From assembly GCA_049860595.1 (NCBI GenBank), contig CP187551.1: a stretch of 64,000 nucleotides of DNA; one strand, given 5' to 3'. How positions within the stretch are numbered: the first letter of the stretch is position 1; every line of letters starts with the position of its first letter. A program made the position numbers and the translations under genes. This stretch comes from Methanocaldococcus sp. 16A. Its GTDB lineage: Archaea > AGJL01 > Methanococci > Methanococcales > Methanocaldococcaceae. Positions 1,268-52,563 of the stretch are shown here, in pieces. Below the pieces are notes generated by a model, which was given only the letters and a program-made list of their open reading frames with translations, searched no databases and had not been told where the DNA came from.

Positions 1268-1525
1268 TCACTCTATTTCCTCCCATTTCTTCTTTAATTC
1301 CCTAACAATTTCTTTTATCTCTTCAACATCCTTCTCTATTTTTATAAGCTTTTCATTGTCTATTGAACTTGATTGCTTTTTTAATGGAGAAATTAGTATA
1401 TACATTATAACTGCAACAATTACTACAAAAATAATCATCCAGAGAATACTATAAAATGGACTTATAGTTACTCCCTCACTACCTACGTAATGTACTCCCA
1501 AACCCATAGGCATAAATCCCACCAT
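1268..1525 (-). CDS. Small single-pass membrane protein with C-terminal coiled coil
   Basis: Hydrophobic stretch ILWMIIFVVIVAVIMYILI followed by a charged helix; lies 4 bp from the ArsR gene. Confidence 0.7.
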   Translation of the reverse strand: MVGFMPMGLGVHYVGSEGVTISPFYSILWMIIFVVIVAVIMYILISPLKKQSSSIDNEKLIKIEKDVEEIKEIVRELKKKWEEIE

Positions 1526-1599
1526 ATAAACTTTTAAAATTATTATATTTCAGCAAAATTTTTATTGAATTCTTTGTTTTGAGAAATATTTAATTTATT

Positions 1600-2850
1600 T
1601 TAATTAACTATCTCACCATTAAACACTATAGAAGGAGATATTAACTTGCCTCTCTGCTCAACATCATTTAATGGTATAGCCTCTTTAAACATCTCAAATA
1701 TATTTCCTCCAAACATTCCTTTTTTGATTGGGGTTATATCTCCATTCTTATATAAATATGAGTTTTGTATTTCTACAGCAAAATCTCCAGTTATTGGGTT
1801 TGATGTATGAGAGCCAATTACTCCATTAATATAGACATATTCGTCAAAGTCATCTAAGCTATTTTTTGTTTCTTTAATAATAAAGTTTGTTGGTGAAACA
1901 TAAGGTAGGGAGCTATAACTTCTTGAACAATTTCCTGTTGAGTTTTTTCCTTCTTTATTAGCTCTCTTTATATCATACAAATAATTTTTTAGAACTCCAT
2001 CTTCAACTAAAACTGTTCTTTGTGTAGCTGTACCTTCACCATCACACTTTGAAGAGTAGAGAGCATAATCTAAAGTTCCATCATCAACTATTGTTATATT
2101 TTCACTAAAAATCTGTTCTCCAATTTTTCCTTTTAAAATGCTTCTATCTCTTTGTACGTTTTCAGCACTGAATGCTGGCATTAATGTATAAGCTAACAAA
2201 TCATACAATGCCCTTGGGGATAAAACTATATTTCCTTTGTATGAAATAGCTTTTCCATTTACTGACTTTTTAGCTAAATCTAACGCTTTATAGCTAATTT
2301 CTTCAACATCAAAAATATTATGCTTTGTTCTGCATTCATAAGATGTTTCTCCATTATACATTATAGATATTGATGCAGAGAAATACGTGTCTTGTTCTTC
2401 AACATCTACACCATTTGAATTTATTAATCTTGCATATCCAATTTCTTTAGAAATTCCTCCGCTTAAAACAATTGCATTATTATCTAAGGCGATATCTCTC
2501 ATAGTTATTAAGCTTTCTAACAATTTTTCTTCATCTAAATCCAAAATTTCTTTATAAAACATCCCCTTTGGCTCTTTATATTTTTGCGGTTCAGCAAATT
2601 TAGTATATTTATCCTCAACCAAATTTTTCATGGCTTTATAGACAATATTCTCATCAAATTTGTTTGAATAAGCGAAACCAACCTTTCCATCCTTTATAAC
2701 TCTAACTCCAATACCATAGGAAATTCCTGTTTGAAAACTATCTACACTTTTTCCATCTAAATCAACACTTACATCATAAGATTTAACAAAAAGAACTTCA
2801 GTTTCAAATCCTTCTCTCTCTCCAATTTTTATTAATTTCTCTAAATCCAT
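1600..2850 (-). CDS. TldD/PmbA family protein (PmbA-like)
   Basis: GIGVRVIKDGKVGFA, DGEGTAT, STGN and NPITGDF motifs. Confidence 0.9.
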   Translation of the reverse strand: MDLEKLIKIGEREGFETEVLFVKSYDVSVDLDGKSVDSFQTGISYGIGVRVIKDGKVGFAYSNKFDENIVYKAMKNLVEDKYTKFAEPQKYKEPKGMFYKEILDLDEEKLLESLITMRDIALDNNAIVLSGGISKEIGYARLINSNGVDVEEQDTYFSASISIMYNGETSYECRTKHNIFDVEEISYKALDLAKKSVNGKAISYKGNIVLSPRALYDLLAYTLMPAFSAENVQRDRSILKGKIGEQIFSENITIVDDGTLDYALYSSKCDGEGTATQRTVLVEDGVLKNYLYDIKRANKEGKNSTGNCSRSYSSLPYVSPTNFIIKETKNSLDDFDEYVYINGVIGSHTSNPITGDFAVEIQNSYLYKNGDITPIKKGMFGGNIFEMFKEAIPLNDVEQRGKLISPSIVFNGEIVN

Positions 2851-4215: not shown

Positions 4216-4247
4216 GTTGTATAACAAATTATCACCCTCCAAATTTA

Positions 4248-4344
4248 TATAGGACTTTCGTAGCTTTATATATTAATTTGGAATTTAGACACATTATAGG
4301 TGTCCATTGTTCAATAAAAAATTTGTTCCTGCGAAAGTCCTATA
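4248..4344. repeat. Palindromic MITE-like repeat, family A (MJRE-like)
   Basis: Perfect 13-bp terminal inverted repeat TATAGGACTTTCG/CGAAAGTCCTATA and central hairpin GACAC..GTGTC; multiple copies in window. Confidence 0.88.
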
Positions 4345-4379: not shown

Positions 4380-4566
4380 TGCTCAAACTTATATATATGG
4401 GGTCTTCCCGATGTAGTCTAATATATGAAAATTAAGACATTTAAAATAGCGACCATTATAATCAACTTTATAGACTACATCGGGATTGGGCTTCATTAGT
4501 CTCAACTCCCCTCTGGGTTCATTGGGGAGTAAATCATCGACCTCAGCCCCAGCCACGGGGACCCCA
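4380..4566 (-). ncRNA. Predicted omega-RNA (scaffold 4399-4566 plus ~20-nt flank-derived guide) of TnpB copy 1
   Basis: Closing stem UGGGGUC/GACCCCA, perfect 15-bp stem UCCCGAUGUAGUCUA/UAGACUACAUCGGGA, K-turn domain; covaries with copy 2. Confidence 0.72.
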
Positions 4567-5732
4567 ACTCCGTCTAAGAGTTTTTTAACTAATTTAACTC
4601 CTCTTTTAAAGATATTAAAAGAGCCAACTAATTGTCTATTAAAAGCTCCACATTTTTCGCATTTAACAACCTGTCCCTCTTGGGACTCCATTTTACTCCC
4701 GCATACGGGACAGGTTTTTGATGTGTAGTGTGGATTAACATAAAAAACAATACTCTTATATTCTAACTTTCTCGCAATACTTCTCCAACTCGTTCTATCT
4801 AAATCTCTGTTAAACTCCGAATTCTTATCATACATATTAAATTTGTTTAAATCTTCAAAGATAAAAATAGCATTAGGAAATAGTCTGGATAATTGAATAG
4901 TTAGTTTATTGATAAAATCATTAACTCGATTTTTTCTTCTATTGTAATATTTTCTTAACAATCTACCGATTCTTTTAGGAGCTTTTTTATAGATTGATTT
5001 TAATTTATCGATAATAGTATCATAAACCTCTTTAATCCAATGCAACTCGGATATATCAATCCTTATCCAACCCTCTGTTGGGTGATATAAATCTAATGAC
5101 TTTAAGTTACTATCAACTCCAACTACAACCTTTTTATTCGATAAATCAATAGGTTTTTTAAAAGTTATTAATGCCTCGTTATCCTTTAAAATAATCTCTC
5201 CTATGTCAAAATCTCTAACTTTATCAAAGAACCATTTATTTTTAATATCTAAAATTAAGTATTCTTTTCTCGGTTTTATAGTAATTCTTATTTCTCCTTT
5301 ATCTTTATTATATTTTATTAATGTTGTTTTAACTCTAACGAATGGTCTTTTAAATGTTGGTTTAATTCTTTTTCTTTTTCCTTTTAAATAATTAGATTTC
5401 CAACTTTCTATTGTAGAGTATGCTACTTTAATAGCTCCATCGACATAATGCTTTGCAAAATTCCATCCATTTAGTAATTCATTTCTTAACTCTCTCTTAA
5501 AATCCTTATCCTTAGGAATTTCTGGAATTAATCGTGTGGTAGTGTAGTGTTTATATTTGTTCCTCAGTTTATACCGATGTTTAACTATTTTTTCTTTCCA
5601 GTTTATGTTATTCCAAATAATATCTACTGCTTTTTGAGCAATGTTTATAAATTCGTATGGTAAGTTTTTTAAATCATAACTGTATTTAACTTTATATGTC
5701 AATACAATTTCACTGGGAAGTTTGTTATTCAT
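4389..5732 (-). CDS. tnpB: TnpB-family RNA-guided endonuclease homolog (atypical RuvC-III)
   Basis: VGVDSN (RuvC-I), FEDL (RuvC-II), TSKTCPVCG...CEKCG zinc finger; RQLVG where RD-x-NA is expected. Confidence 0.92.
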   Translation of the reverse strand: MNNKLPSEIVLTYKVKYSYDLKNLPYEFINIAQKAVDIIWNNINWKEKIVKHRYKLRNKYKHYTTTRLIPEIPKDKDFKRELRNELLNGWNFAKHYVDGAIKVAYSTIESWKSNYLKGKRKRIKPTFKRPFVRVKTTLIKYNKDKGEIRITIKPRKEYLILDIKNKWFFDKVRDFDIGEIILKDNEALITFKKPIDLSNKKVVVGVDSNLKSLDLYHPTEGWIRIDISELHWIKEVYDTIIDKLKSIYKKAPKRIGRLLRKYYNRRKNRVNDFINKLTIQLSRLFPNAIFIFEDLNKFNMYDKNSEFNRDLDRTSWRSIARKLEYKSIVFYVNPHYTSKTCPVCGSKMESQEGQVVKCEKCGAFNRQLVGSFNIFKRGVKLVKKLLDGVGVPVAGAEVDDLLPNEPRGELRLMKPNPDVVYKVDYNGRYFKCLNFHILDYIGKTPYI

Positions 5733-5813
5733 TATGTATCCCTTAAAATTTCTTTTTTAATGTAATCATCAATTTCTATCTTTGTTTATCTATTATTTAA
5801 CAATTTCGAGAGG
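4401..5813 (-). mobile_element. Non-autonomous IS607-like element 1 (tnpB only)
   Basis: GG dinucleotide at both junctions (4399-4400, 5812-5813); left end aligns with left end of element 2; structured right end. Confidence 0.78.
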
Positions 5814-5832
5814 CGTTTATAATGGTGATAGC

Positions 5833-14635: not shown

Positions 14636-14714
14636 TATGGGACTTTCTCAGTTTATATTATTCAATACTGCAGTAGGATGTCAATAGAATATTTATTCCT
14701 GCGAAAGTCCTATA
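14636..14714. repeat. Family A palindromic repeat
   Basis: TATGGGACTTTCTCAG...CTGCGAAAGTCCTATA. Confidence 0.8.
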
Positions 14715-14798
14715 TATTTGTATCAACAGAAAGTGTCAAAACAAATGATAGGCAATACCTAAAAATATAAAAGAAATATAAAAATGTTTTTATATCTT

Positions 14799-33889: not shown

Positions 33890-33948
33890 GGCAGATGATG
33901 ACGTTTATCCCCGTCTGAGTTGTGATGAGTAGCAAGCCGGCTGATGCC
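33890..33948 (+). ncRNA. C/D box methylation-guide sRNA
   Basis: GGCA/TGCC stem; ATGATGA-CGTTTATCCCCGT-CTGA...GTGATGA-GTAGCAAGCCGG-CTGA. Confidence 0.92.
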
Positions 33949-35352
33949 ACTTAAAACTGTTTAATTATCTATAGATAAAGATAGACATTTATAGGCAAAC
34001 TTCAGAAAAAATTTTTAATATACGATGGGTAATATAGCAATCTAAAAACCGAATGAACGATTACCATGTCAAACGAAGCAAAATCAAAAAACAACCAAGA
34101 ATTGTCCTATCAAATTGTTCTATCTTACAAGATTAGTCATTACTATCCACTTAAAACTTTTTTAACCGAATGCAAAGACAAACTAAACGAATGCATAGAC
34201 ATAATTTGGAATAATATTGAATGGACTAAAAAAGAACGACCAAAACTACCAAAATCAAACGAATTTAAGAGGAATTTAAGAAACAAACTGTTAAAAAATT
34301 GGAATTATGCCTCTCATTATATCGATGGGATTATTAAAACCGCTTATTCTATCCTAAATAGTTGGGCTTCGAACTATAAAAAGGGTTATAGAACGAAATC
34401 AAAACCGATAGTTAAAAGACCATTCGTTAGAGTAAAAACAACACTAATAAAATACAATAAAGATAAAGGAGAAATAAGAATAACAATAAAACCAAGAAAA
34501 GAATATTTAATTTTAAACATTAAAGATGAATGGTTTTTCGATAAAGTTAAGGATTTACCCATAGGAGAAATTATTCTAAAAGAAAATGAGGCATTCTTAA
34601 CCTTCAAAGATGCTCTAAACTATTCAGACAAAGATATAATCGTTGGAGTGGATAGCAACTTAAAGTCGTTGGATTTATATCATCCAACAGAGGGCTGGAT
34701 TAGGATTGACATATCTGAATTGCATAGAATTAAAGAGGTTTATGATAGAAAAATCGATTTTCTTAAAAAGTTGATTAAAAAGTGTCCTTTGAGAGCCATG
34801 AGAAAGATAAAAAGATTATTCGAAAGAAGAAGAAATAGAGTTAATGACTTTTTACATAAACTAACTACTCAACTATCCCGATTATTCTCTAATGTAGTTT
34901 TTGTTTTTGAAGATTTGAATAAAAGAAAAATGTATAAGCATAAAACTTTCAATCGAAAGTTGGATAGGGCAAATTGGAGTGAAATAATACAAAAAATTGG
35001 CTATAAGGCGATAACTATTTTAGTTAATCCTGCCTATACCTCAACAACCTGTCCTATATGCGGGAGTAAAATGGAGTCCCAAGAAGGACAGGTTGTTTTT
35101 TGCTCTAATTGTAAGAACTCTTTTAATCGCCAATTAGTTGGTTGTTTTAATATCTTTAAAAGAGGTTTAGGTAAAGTTAAAGATATTATGGGTGGCTTTG
35201 GGGTTACCACGACAGGGGCAGAGGTTTCCATTTGGAAACTGATGACGCCCAATTCCAACGTGGCATATAAAGTTGATTATAATGGAAAATACCTAATTAA
35301 AATTTTCTGAATGTCTATAATTGCCTATAAATGACCACGTTGAGAGAACCCC
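33949..35352 (+). mobile_element. Non-autonomous IS607-like element 2 (tnpB only)
   Basis: CC at both junctions (33947-48, 35351-52); ATAG(A/G)CA-like repeats near both ends in inverted orientation; left end homologous to element 1. Confidence 0.78.
34066..35310 (+). CDS. tnpB: TnpB-family RNA-guided endonuclease homolog (atypical RuvC-III)
   Basis: VGVDSNLKSLD, FEDL, TSTTCPICG...CSNC, RQLVGCFNI. Confidence 0.92.
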   Translation: MSNEAKSKNNQELSYQIVLSYKISHYYPLKTFLTECKDKLNECIDIIWNNIEWTKKERPKLPKSNEFKRNLRNKLLKNWNYASHYIDGIIKTAYSILNSWASNYKKGYRTKSKPIVKRPFVRVKTTLIKYNKDKGEIRITIKPRKEYLILNIKDEWFFDKVKDLPIGEIILKENEAFLTFKDALNYSDKDIIVGVDSNLKSLDLYHPTEGWIRIDISELHRIKEVYDRKIDFLKKLIKKCPLRAMRKIKRLFERRRNRVNDFLHKLTTQLSRLFSNVVFVFEDLNKRKMYKHKTFNRKLDRANWSEIIQKIGYKAITILVNPAYTSTTCPICGSKMESQEGQVVFCSNCKNSFNRQLVGCFNIFKRGLGKVKDIMGGFGVTTTGAEVSIWKLMTPNSNVAYKVDYNGKYLIKIF

Positions 35353-35372
35353 ACTTTTCTTTTTTAGAGAGG
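35199..35372 (+). ncRNA. Predicted omega-RNA of TnpB copy 2 (scaffold ~35199-35352 plus guide)
   Basis: UGGGGUU/AACCCCA closing stem, CAACGUGG/CCACGUUG stem, K-turn hairpin. Confidence 0.7.
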
Positions 35373-42419: not shown

Positions 42420-42514
42420 AATAGGACTTTCGCAGGAATAAATTTTTATTGAATATGAACACCTTTAAGGTGTCTAAAGTCCAAATTAGTATATAAAACT
42501 GCGAAAGTCCTATT
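42420..42514. repeat. Family A palindromic repeat (most intact copy)
   Basis: Perfect 16-bp TIR AATAGGACTTTCGCAG/CTGCGAAAGTCCTATT; central ACACCT-TT-AAGGTGT hairpin. Confidence 0.92.
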
Positions 42515-52005: not shown

Positions 52006-52468
52006 TAAAAGATACTTATTAAATTTCTTTATTTTATTAATTTTGATATATCTTTTTTTGAAAAATTTTGAAATAGAAATTGCTAAAATACTAACCATTA
52101 TTATTGGAAATTTACTAAAAATTCCTTATTTTGAAAATAAACTTATTTATAATGAAGAAATATTTTCAATAAATCCTGCATGTACATGTTCTTTTGAAAT
52201 TGCTCTATTTTTGGCTTATGTACTTGCTACACCAAAAGTCCCTCTTAAATATAAATTAACATATTCGATTATTGGTATATTAATTATAAACATTACAAAC
52301 ATATTGAGGATAATTTTTATTTTAAAAAACTCATACTTGACAAATTACATGCTTATTCACAATGTAATAAGCTTTATAATCTTTCCAGTAGCGTTAATTT
52401 TAAATCTCATATGGGTTAAGATATTATTAAAAATAGGCGTAATTAAAATAGGACTTTCGCAGGAATAA
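51998..52468 (+). CDS. Archaeosortase D-like protein
   Basis: ACTC (Cys), NILRI (Arg), IHN (His); next to PIP-CTERM substrate. Confidence 0.8.
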   Translation: MDNKRYLLNFFILLILIYLFLKNFEIEIAKILTIIIGNLLKIPYFENKLIYNEEIFSINPACTCSFEIALFLAYVLATPKVPLKYKLTYSIIGILIINITNILRIIFILKNSYLTNYMLIHNVISFIIFPVALILNLIWVKILLKIGVIKIGLSQE

Positions 52469-52542
52469 ATATACTCATTGGACATAAACACTTAAAGGTG
52501 TCAAAGTTCCTTATTTAATATATAAACTGTAAAAGTCCTATT
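52447..52542. repeat. Family A palindromic repeat overlapping the archaeosortase 3' end
   Basis: AATAGGACTTTCGCAG...CTGTAAAAGTCCTATT. Confidence 0.9.
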
Positions 52543-52563
52543 AAATGATAAGAAGGGGATTTT

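Follow-up and report, generated by a model that had tools for sequence, protein, structure and literature searches.

A glutamine in place of the RuvC-III aspartate and a conserved aspartate after RuvC-I in two archaeal IS607-type TnpB proteins

The two tnpB genes and their active-site residues

The 64,000-nucleotide stretch of contig CP187551.1 of Methanocaldococcus sp. 16A (assembly GCA_049860595.1) that was analyzed here, further referred to as the window, contains two genes for TnpB proteins, tnpB-A and tnpB-B (Table 1). The encoded proteins are 59% identical across 430 alignment columns, and both score above cut-off for the Pfam families OrfB_IS605 and Cas12f1-like_TNB. With the NCBIfam model guided_TnpB (NF040570; cut-off 100 bits) the tnpB-B protein obtained 116.4 bits and the tnpB-A protein only 93 bits. 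The AlphaFold2 (AF2) model of the latter, which was built from a 48-sequence alignment, has a predicted local distance difference test score (pLDDT) of 82.6, and its best Foldseek matches were AsCas12f (E-value 4e-14), Fanzor2 (9e-12) and ISDra2 TnpB (8h1j; 2.4e-9). A copy on plasmid pFS01 (L124, 1483-2793; 80% identical) carries in RefSeq merely the name 'zinc ribbon domain-containing protein'. Given this label and the score of tnpB-A below the guided_TnpB cut-off, the clade to which these proteins belong is partly invisible to automatic TnpB annotation. On the basis of the data presented below, both window genes are ordinary members of a large, mobile, archaeal IS607-type TnpB clade.

The catalytic residues were mapped by phmmer searches against PDB chains, with equivalences established by counting chain numbers in the alignments. 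In this way, the sequence NRQLVGSFNI of tnpB-A was found to align with DRDENAALNI of ISDra2 TnpB and DRDENAAKNI of the mimivirus Fanzor2. The ISDra2 residue that corresponds to Q367, D361, is the one that we take to be its catalytic RuvC-III residue. This agrees with the Fanzor2 mapping and with the DRDxN/NADxN motifs quoted in PMC10691335. The equivalents of the other two residues, D191 and E278, have been shown to be catalytic in ISDra2 TnpB (PMC8612924), and the catalytic triad of Fanzor2 was described as D324/E467/D501 (PMC11832414). The canonical RuvC D-E-D triad is thus incomplete in both window proteins: the Asp and the Glu are kept and the third position is occupied by Gln. An earlier note on this DNA, made from the sequence alone, had claimed exactly this, namely intact RuvC-I and RuvC-II residues, a missing RuvC-III Asp and an extra Asp seven residues after RuvC-I in both copies, and the alignments bear it out. 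The shared GVDSNLKSLD motif, which holds the extra Asp, starts at 5120 (minus strand) in tnpB-A and at 34645 (plus strand) in tnpB-B, and the NRQLVG motif starts at 4640 (minus) and 35125 (plus), respectively. The description of the replaced D-R-D motif needs one refinement. Since N365 corresponds to the first Asp position of the motif, neither of its acidic positions has been kept and the window proteins read N-R-Q. The first Asp of D-R-Q as a substitute carboxylate can therefore be ruled out for them, as both have Asn there. A canonical RuvC-III Asp elsewhere was looked for in both sequences and is not present: reading the sequences, we found no Asp or Glu in tnpB-A between the last zinc-finger Cys and residue 386, and none in tnpB-B for around 20 residues past the last zinc-finger Cys.

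The AF2 model of tnpB-A places strand beta-1 at residues 204-207 and strand beta-2 at residues 212-217. Along beta-1 (204-207) and beta-2 (212-216), the alignment columns and the modeled strands display an alternation of small and hydrophobic residues, which suggests that D207, S212 and D214 lie on one and the same face of the sheet.

Table 1. Features of the two tnpB loci, in window coordinates
Feature	Position	Strand	Remarks
tnpB-A (P0001), 447 aa	4389..5732	minus	WED/REC, RuvC domain and zinc finger; TnpB/Cas12f fold
RuvC-I Asp D207 (tnpB-A)	5112..5114	minus	Equivalent to ISDra2 D191 and Fanzor2 D324; 108/108 homologues
Extra Asp D214 (tnpB-A), +7 from RuvC-I	5091..5093	minus	On predicted strand beta-2; proposed relocated third carboxylate
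RuvC-II Glu E293 (tnpB-A)	4854..4856	minus	Equivalent to ISDra2 E278; 108/108 homologues
C4 zinc finger C341/C344/C358/C361 (tnpB-A)	4650..4712	minus	Each Cys in 108/108 homologues
N365-R366-Q367 (tnpB-A)	4632..4640	minus	In place of canonical D-R-D; Q367 equivalent to ISDra2 D361 and Fanzor2 D501
Candidate omegaRNA scaffold	4399..4575	minus	Overlaps 3' end of tnpB-A; G+C-rich helices 4467-4575; terminal hairpin around 4405-4486
Presumed guide template outside right end of IS-A	4380..4397	minus	Ancestral intergenic DNA; same 18 bases in the element-free eno-trpD spacer of G014
IS-A, IS607-type, tnpA lost	4398..5822	minus	Right end ...GACCCCA finishes at 4398; left-end core GCC... from 5814
tnpB-B (P0002), 414 aa	34066..35310	plus	guided_TnpB 116.4 bits (cut-off 100)
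RuvC-I Asp D196 (tnpB-B)	34651-34653	plus	
+7 Asp D203 (tnpB-B)	34672-34674	plus	
RuvC-II Glu E282 (tnpB-B)	34909-34911	plus	
Zinc finger (tnpB-B)	35050-35112	plus	
N354-R355-Q356 (tnpB-B)	35125-35133	plus	
IS-B, IS607-type, without tnpA	33946..35353	plus	Left-end core GCC... from 33946; right end ...GAACCCCA finishes at 35353

Conservation and coupling of the RuvC-III and +7 positions

A word-indexed search yielded 135 relatives at E < 1e-5, 120 of which were listed; these derive from Methanococcales, Thermococcales, Bathyarchaeota, Thermofilum and Asgard archaea. Thermococcus kodakarensis is among the species with members of the clade. After removal of 12 shorter sequences, 108 of the 120 listed homologues (at least 370 aa) were aligned. 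Within this set D207, N209, E293 and the four zinc-finger cysteines are invariant, and S212 (107), D214 (107), R366 (106) and Q367 (107) nearly so. Position 365 is more variable, with Asp in 79 sequences and Asn in 29. A scan of species-representative genomes provided a second set of 79 loci, all of them archaeal according to the record titles. At 60 of these loci, 61 open reading frames (ORFs) cover all sites, and the +7 Asp occurs in 60 of them: 59 ORFs have Gln at the RuvC-III position, each together with the +7 Asp, one has His with the +7 Asp, and the last one is an unrelated canonical TnpB that adjoins a member of the clade. The same signature was found in a Gln-type copy of the Acidianus tailed spindle virus.

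The genes are under purifying selection, with ratios of nonsynonymous to synonymous substitution rates (dN/dS) of 0.10-0.18 for tnpB-A against 11 relatives and 0.10-0.20 for tnpB-B against 8 relatives. The conservation of D207 and E293 across Methanococcales, Thermococcales, Thermoproteota, Archaeoglobales and Asgard archaea is not what one would expect of a dead enzyme. Considering that the signature is family-wide, the pattern is not a matter of chance. The argument of the earlier note that the substitution does not represent simple decay is corroborated by this family-wide occurrence, by the intact ORFs and by the dN/dS values of 0.10-0.20, and decay or a local accident was rejected on basis of the clade-wide fixation and the purifying selection. 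In two copies from one genome (L022 and L033 in G006) the RuvC-I Asp is replaced by Tyr (Y-N-S-D), and one of the two is otherwise a full frame of 414 aa; judged by their sequence, they are candidates for inactivated copies.

To describe the relation between the two positions over a wider range, a profile of the clade was compared with 1.84 billion cluster representatives. This gave 14,020 matches at E < 1e-3, of which the best 150 were used. Among the 149 non-window representatives, 78 cover RuvC-I, the +7 position, RuvC-II and RuvC-III, and the remaining 71 are fragments. The combinations of the residues at +7 and RuvC-III were Asp/Gln (29), Thr/Asp (19), Asp/His (10) and Asp/Asp (7), with Thr/His (3), Ser/Asp (2) and Val/His (2) being rarer and Glu/Asp, Ile/Asp, Ala/His, Asp/Asn, Val/Asn and Val/Asp occurring once each. 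More explicitly, Gln at RuvC-III was encountered solely with Asp at +7 (29/29), and Asp at RuvC-III mostly with Thr at +7 (19/31). An acidic +7 residue goes with a non-Asp residue at RuvC-III in 40 cases and with Asp in 8, and a non-acidic +7 residue with Asp in 23 cases and with another residue in 7. The association is significant according to Fisher's exact test (p = 2e-7), a value that applies to related rows and is uncorrected for their kinship. Of all columns, column 214 shares the top value of mutual information with the state at RuvC-III, and it is the sole acidic column that is fixed in the Gln rows (31/31) yet variable in the Asp rows (8/31 acidic). Three other acidic positions, D226, D272 and D294, do not discriminate between the RuvC-III types, and N209 shows no variation whichever of Gln, His or Asp is found at RuvC-III.

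A maximum-likelihood tree of 80 rows was made with a quick method after removal of the trait columns. The window pair falls within a well-supported clade of 28 rows, comprising 26 Asp/Gln, one Asp/His and one Asp/Asp combination, and the sister group of this clade consists of four Thr/Asp rows. Gln appears in at least three further places of the tree, beside Asp/Asp or Asp/His rows, so that the neighbours of these minor Gln lineages combine the +7 Asp with Asp or His at RuvC-III. The Gln label requires six changes on the tree, at least five of which are forced by well-supported branches, and a single Gln clade is rejected by the approximately unbiased test (p 0.00015; the group was named after the tree had been seen). 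We infer from these sequences, on a tree whose root is unplaced, that the +7 Asp was probably gained first and the old Asp lost later. In such a history the +7 Asp would have arisen and coexisted with the canonical Asp, as it still does in eight representatives, after which the old Asp, now dispensable, would have been replaced repeatedly by Gln or His.

The His-type relatives (P0188, P0207, P0208, P0225, P0245, P0166 and others) show a peculiarity of their own, as 14 of 16 have a Glu at +3 (D-x-N-E). A Glu three residues past RuvC-I was found in 9/31 of the Asp-type rows and in 9/31 of the Gln-type rows. Going by the sequences, the D-x-N-E motif of the His-type relatives may represent a different compensation.

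IS607-type elements and a candidate omegaRNA

In close relatives of copy A, a gene of around 210 aa abuts tnpB on the upstream side and encodes a protein with MerR-type helix-turn-helix (HTH) and Resolvase domains (Pfam). Such a serine-recombinase tnpA was found next to tnpB at 30 of the 46 loci with at least 650 nt of upstream sequence, and on the Methanocaldococcus plasmid pFS01 the neighbour of tnpB has been labeled 'IS607 family transposase' in RefSeq. The clade can therefore be assigned to the IS607 type. The homology of IS-A to tnpA-bearing relatives covers 4397-5755 and 5763-5814 of the window, and the latter 52 bp match the left end that lies upstream of tnpA in one of these relatives (L008). 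With this remnant of the left end but without tnpA, IS-A represents a deletion derivative; homology of the flank to relatives resumes at 5823. For IS-B, the homology to B-type copies in other genomes runs from around 33939/33951 to 35352/35366 and the flanks are unrelated. Within the order, 15 of 40 genomes carry 1 to 11 copies, some of them broken. The copies sit at differing places in different genomes and have no conserved gene neighbourhood.

None of the nine relatives that have both flanks on one contig carries the element in the eno-trpD spacer, and the empty spacers measure 74-199 bp in six genomes and 877-994 bp in three. Copy A is missing from the closest relative (G014), whose flanks show 96% nucleotide identity, which implies that the insertion of IS-A is recent. 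IS607 elements typically have ends that share a short core dinucleotide, lack long inverted repeats and leave no target duplication. The empty site of G014 has CC at the junction, and the element starts with (G)CC at the left end and finishes with ...CCCC(A) at the right end. On the left-end side of IS-A the window lacks around 150 bp of ancestral spacer sequence, and hence there is only one clean junction. The 12 left-end flanks that were compared for a transposon-adjacent motif (TAM) are all A/T-rich and show no obvious consensus.

Two further observations concern the surroundings of the elements. The left end of IS-B (33946) coincides with the last base of the C/D-box sRNA gene sR1 (33890-33946; Rfam, 47.9 bits, cut-off 45), which means that the element landed flush against the sRNA gene. 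Furthermore, a repeat of around 100 bp is located at 4244-4344, between the enolase gene and the right end of IS-A, and is absent from the spacer of the closest relative. It recurs in the window at 42421-42513, 52448-52546 and 14681-14732, with at least 16 further copies in the same genome and more in relatives, and is a candidate miniature inverted-repeat transposable element or regulatory repeat.

The last ~180 nt of tnpB-A up to the right end is rich in G+C within a genome of around 30% G+C. This region shares 80-84% DNA identity with Thermococcus and Asgard loci at which the proteins are only around 54% identical, and the protein tail it encodes is disordered in the AF2 model (pLDDT < 50). 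RNAalifold predicted 16 pairs from 42 sequences, nine of them with compensatory double changes; changes on both sides were found in 27 sequences for pair 30-86 and in 20 for pair 36-77. The region closes with a long hairpin, followed by the conserved ...ACCCC end. Conservation and covariation of an RNA over the 3' part of tnpB are the properties expected of an omegaRNA scaffold, and we consider the region a candidate on that ground. Searches of Rfam returned no family for this RNA, neither in the window, at the gathering threshold or at E-values up to 10, nor in 16 related loci; the weak matches that did appear (mir-84, SpR19 etc.) were rejected as chance matches to hairpins. HgcC RNAs have been reported from inside 'transposase' genes of Thermococcus kodakarensis (PMC4247193, PMC4615843), and could not be linked to the RNA described here.

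Several other structures were noted in or around the RNA module. An inverted repeat of 9-12 bp is present in the zinc-finger coding region of both genes (35043-35054/35086-35097 in tnpB-B and 4665-4676/4708-4716 in tnpB-A), and its DNA is near-identical between the copies, where the proteins overall are 59% identical. It may be a structural element of the RNA or DNA, for instance a processing site or the 5' portion of the omegaRNA. At three loci from several genomes (L019, L029 and L027) an extra segment of around 47 nt (...GAGCGAAGCGA...AACTTAAAAACC...) occurs at the same point of the RNA module, and could represent either a variant form of the RNA or a small hairpin that is mobile. The genome of the window itself also holds two miniature elements without tnpB: one (L004, around 1349-1648) consists of a left-end core with, around 100 bp on, an omegaRNA-like module and a ...GACACCA end, and the other (L005, around 1459-1660) has the RNA module alone. 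At least nine copies of the RNA core are found in a relative (G012) in which tnpB is only present in broken form. The miniature elements that lack tnpB may be guide-RNA modules that are served in trans.

Interpretation and comparison with known systems

The evidence taken together points to an active RNA-guided nuclease in which the role of the third carboxylate has passed from the RuvC-III helix to D214 on strand beta-2, a reading which, derived from sequence comparison, we regard as an evenly balanced call. It is suggested by the fact that D207, E293 and the zinc finger do not vary in a clade that is mobile and subject to purifying selection, by the fact that Gln never occurs without the +7 Asp, by the recurrence of this pairing and by the residue alternation along the two strands. 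In such a scheme the tnpB-A or tnpB-B protein would bind an omegaRNA that derives from the 3' part of tnpB together with the element's right end, with the flanking sequence outside the right end serving as guide. The protein would then cut copies of the site that are free of the element, and the element would be copied back, resulting in homing or retention. D214 would supply the third carboxylate to the metal site and Gln367 would be left in the second shell. What the comparisons show directly are the motif states with their conservation and co-occurrence, the IS607 context, the mobility of the elements, the purifying selection and the structured RNA; cleavage of DNA, a role in homing and the reach of D214 to the metal site are proposed. 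The implied layout, in which beta-1 would carry the Asp, beta-4 the Glu and beta-2, rather than the C-terminal helix, the third carboxylate, and which would have arisen repeatedly on backgrounds that already had the beta-2 Asp, would not have been described before for TnpB or Cas12; to this broader claim we assign slightly less than even confidence.

A number of points weigh against this interpretation. The eight representatives that combine an acidic +7 residue with the canonical Asp imply that the +7 Asp is not purely a replacement, and in seven others (six with His and one with Asn) the Asp has been lost without an acidic residue at +7. In a comparison of phylogenetically independent pairs only six pairs on supported branches were available (median p 0.5), which leaves the test underpowered; in view of this weak outcome, the raw association between +7 and RuvC-III is inflated by shared ancestry. 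In addition, the genome of the window (99.98% complete) gave no matches to Resolvase and none to the Y1 transposase, and therefore its two copies cannot move unaided. Gln is a poor metal ligand, and thus a reduced or altered activity, for instance nicking, is possible. Finally, the literature that was searched contains no cleavage assay of any clade member, nor a report that characterizes the clade as an active nuclease. The earlier note had offered two options, a rearranged site and a non-cleaving RNA-guided binder. Comparative evidence favours the former, and the exaptation of the TldR type that the note brought up in this context is not supported, given that the IS607 ends are recognisable, that relatives have empty sites and that the flanks differ between genomes.

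Among the other explanations, the one that survives best, though we deem it unlikely, is that double-strand cleavage has been lost and that the protein acts as an RNA-guided binder or weak nickase on behalf of the transposon, for example by marking or protecting serine-recombinase sites. D207, E293 and D214 would in that case have been retained because they serve the metal-dependent binding of nucleic acids or the processing of the omegaRNA, and TnpB has indeed been reported to process its own mRNA into omegaRNA (PMC10278001). The absence of the canonical third carboxylate and of activity data in the literature searched fits this explanation, and since IS607 moves by means of a serine recombinase, its dependence on cleavage by TnpB could differ from that of IS605. 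The published nuclease-dead derivatives of TnpB, however, have lost several catalytic residues or the C-terminus and have become immobile (PMC10691335), whereas the present clade invariantly retains two of the three residues together with the zinc finger and belongs to mobile elements.

We consider it still less probable that the protein is an active nuclease in which D214 is not a metal ligand. Catalysis would then rest on D207 and E293, Gln367 and possibly also Asn209 would hold water or act as neutral ligands, and D214 would have a structural role such as pairing with R366. Some RNase H-fold enzymes tolerate Asn or His at the position of the last acidic residue with partial activity, and the near-invariance of R366 (106/108 homologues), the invariance of N209 in all three RuvC-III types and the coexistence of the +7 Asp with the canonical Asp in eight representatives are all compatible with such a role. 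It leaves unexplained why Gln is never found without the +7 Asp (29/29 representatives of the best 150 and 59/59 genome ORFs) and why column 214 is among those most coupled to the RuvC-III state. That the window genes are host-domesticated, TldR-like regulators or decaying pseudogenes with a locally acquired substitution is highly improbable: the lack of a transposase for them in the genome and the loss of tnpA from copy A would agree with it, but the same residues are fixed clade-wide, both ORFs are intact with dN/dS of 0.10-0.20, the transposon ends and the RNA module are present, and the absence of copy A from G014 makes the insertion recent, with no conserved gene neighbourhood.

What is worth keeping from the analysis is that loss of the RuvC-III Asp goes together with an Asp on beta-2, clade-wide and recurrently. 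So far, rearrangements of the TnpB/Fanzor site have been demonstrated for the RuvC-II Glu only, and those of RuvC-III have been catalogued. A relocated carboxylate at D214 leads to the prediction, for a widespread archaeal clade, that D214 is essential and that Q367 is not a metal ligand. If true, the RuvC fold would have a second route to re-wire its metal site, and the clade would represent a pool of thermostable and compact (~410-450 aa) hyperthermophilic nucleases with a different metal-site geometry and possibly a different cleavage behaviour (nicking, no collateral activity). If the prediction fails, the clade would be the first case of a large TnpB lineage that is mobile yet does not cleave, and one would have to reconsider what TnpB does in IS607 elements.

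With respect to known systems, the TldRs are nuclease-dead, RNA-guided transcription factors that were domesticated from transposon-encoded TnpB (PMC10705468, PMC13622181). The present proteins share with them, going by the published description, the TnpB descent and the loss of at least one catalytic residue. They differ in that the clade is archaeal, mobile and transposase-linked and keeps the RuvC-I Asp, the RuvC-II Glu and the zinc finger. One of the three canonical residues is gone, and neither the remaining two nor the zinc finger varies. ISDra2 TnpB (IS200/IS605; 8EXA, 8H1J) is alike in fold, in the equivalents of D191 and E278, in the zinc finger and in an omegaRNA that extends over the 3' end of the gene (a candidate in our case), but has a canonical DRD motif and a Y1 transposase as partner, and the sequence similarity is local only (E 5.3e-5, residues 246-374). 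The best sequence match among the solved structures is Fanzor2 (9b0l, E 9.5e-8), which is IS607-associated.

In their census of TnpB and Cas12, Altae-Tran et al. (PNAS 2023; PMC10691335) recognized six large branches with an altered RuvC-III ('RIIIr-#'). There are also rearranged branches associated with a serine recombinase ('Ser-#'), and several rearranged branches (Ser-6, RIIIr-6 and others) were near-exclusive to archaea. Retained activity was deduced there from the branch-wide conservation of the RuvC-III change. The clade described here resembles these branches in the branch-wide replacement at RuvC-III, and is archaea-only (79/79 loci) and linked to a serine recombinase (30/46 loci). 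The main text of the census describes the Asp-to-His case alone (RIIIr-4, without zinc finger), and we found in it no mention of Gln or of a compensating Asp after RuvC-I. The literature search likewise gave no text on Gln at RuvC-III with such an Asp, and in the passages searched of the reviews PMC13565253 and PMC13639567 and of the preprint 10.1101/2023.08.09.552727 neither Gln nor any change at RuvC-III is brought up.

A third, distant TnpB in the genome of the window (L003; ORF 1426-2760, minus strand; frame of 445 aa) has Gly at the position of the RuvC-II Glu and N-A-D-x-N at RuvC-III and is, on its sequence, of the other rearranged-site kind, with a relocated glutamate. Activity with a relocated RuvC-II Glu has been shown experimentally for TnpB2/pro-Fanzor, Fanzor and the TnpB of Thermoplasma volcanium (PMC10530073, PMC11832414). 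The likeness to the Fanzor and T. volcanium proteins is that one carboxylate has been lost and that a conserved acidic residue elsewhere takes over, which is a proposal in our case. The residue concerned is another one: in the Fanzor and T. volcanium proteins the RuvC-II Glu has shifted by around 45-50 residues towards the C-terminus and RuvC-III stays DRD, whereas in the clade described here RuvC-II is canonical, RuvC-III has changed and the proposed substitute is located on strand beta-2.

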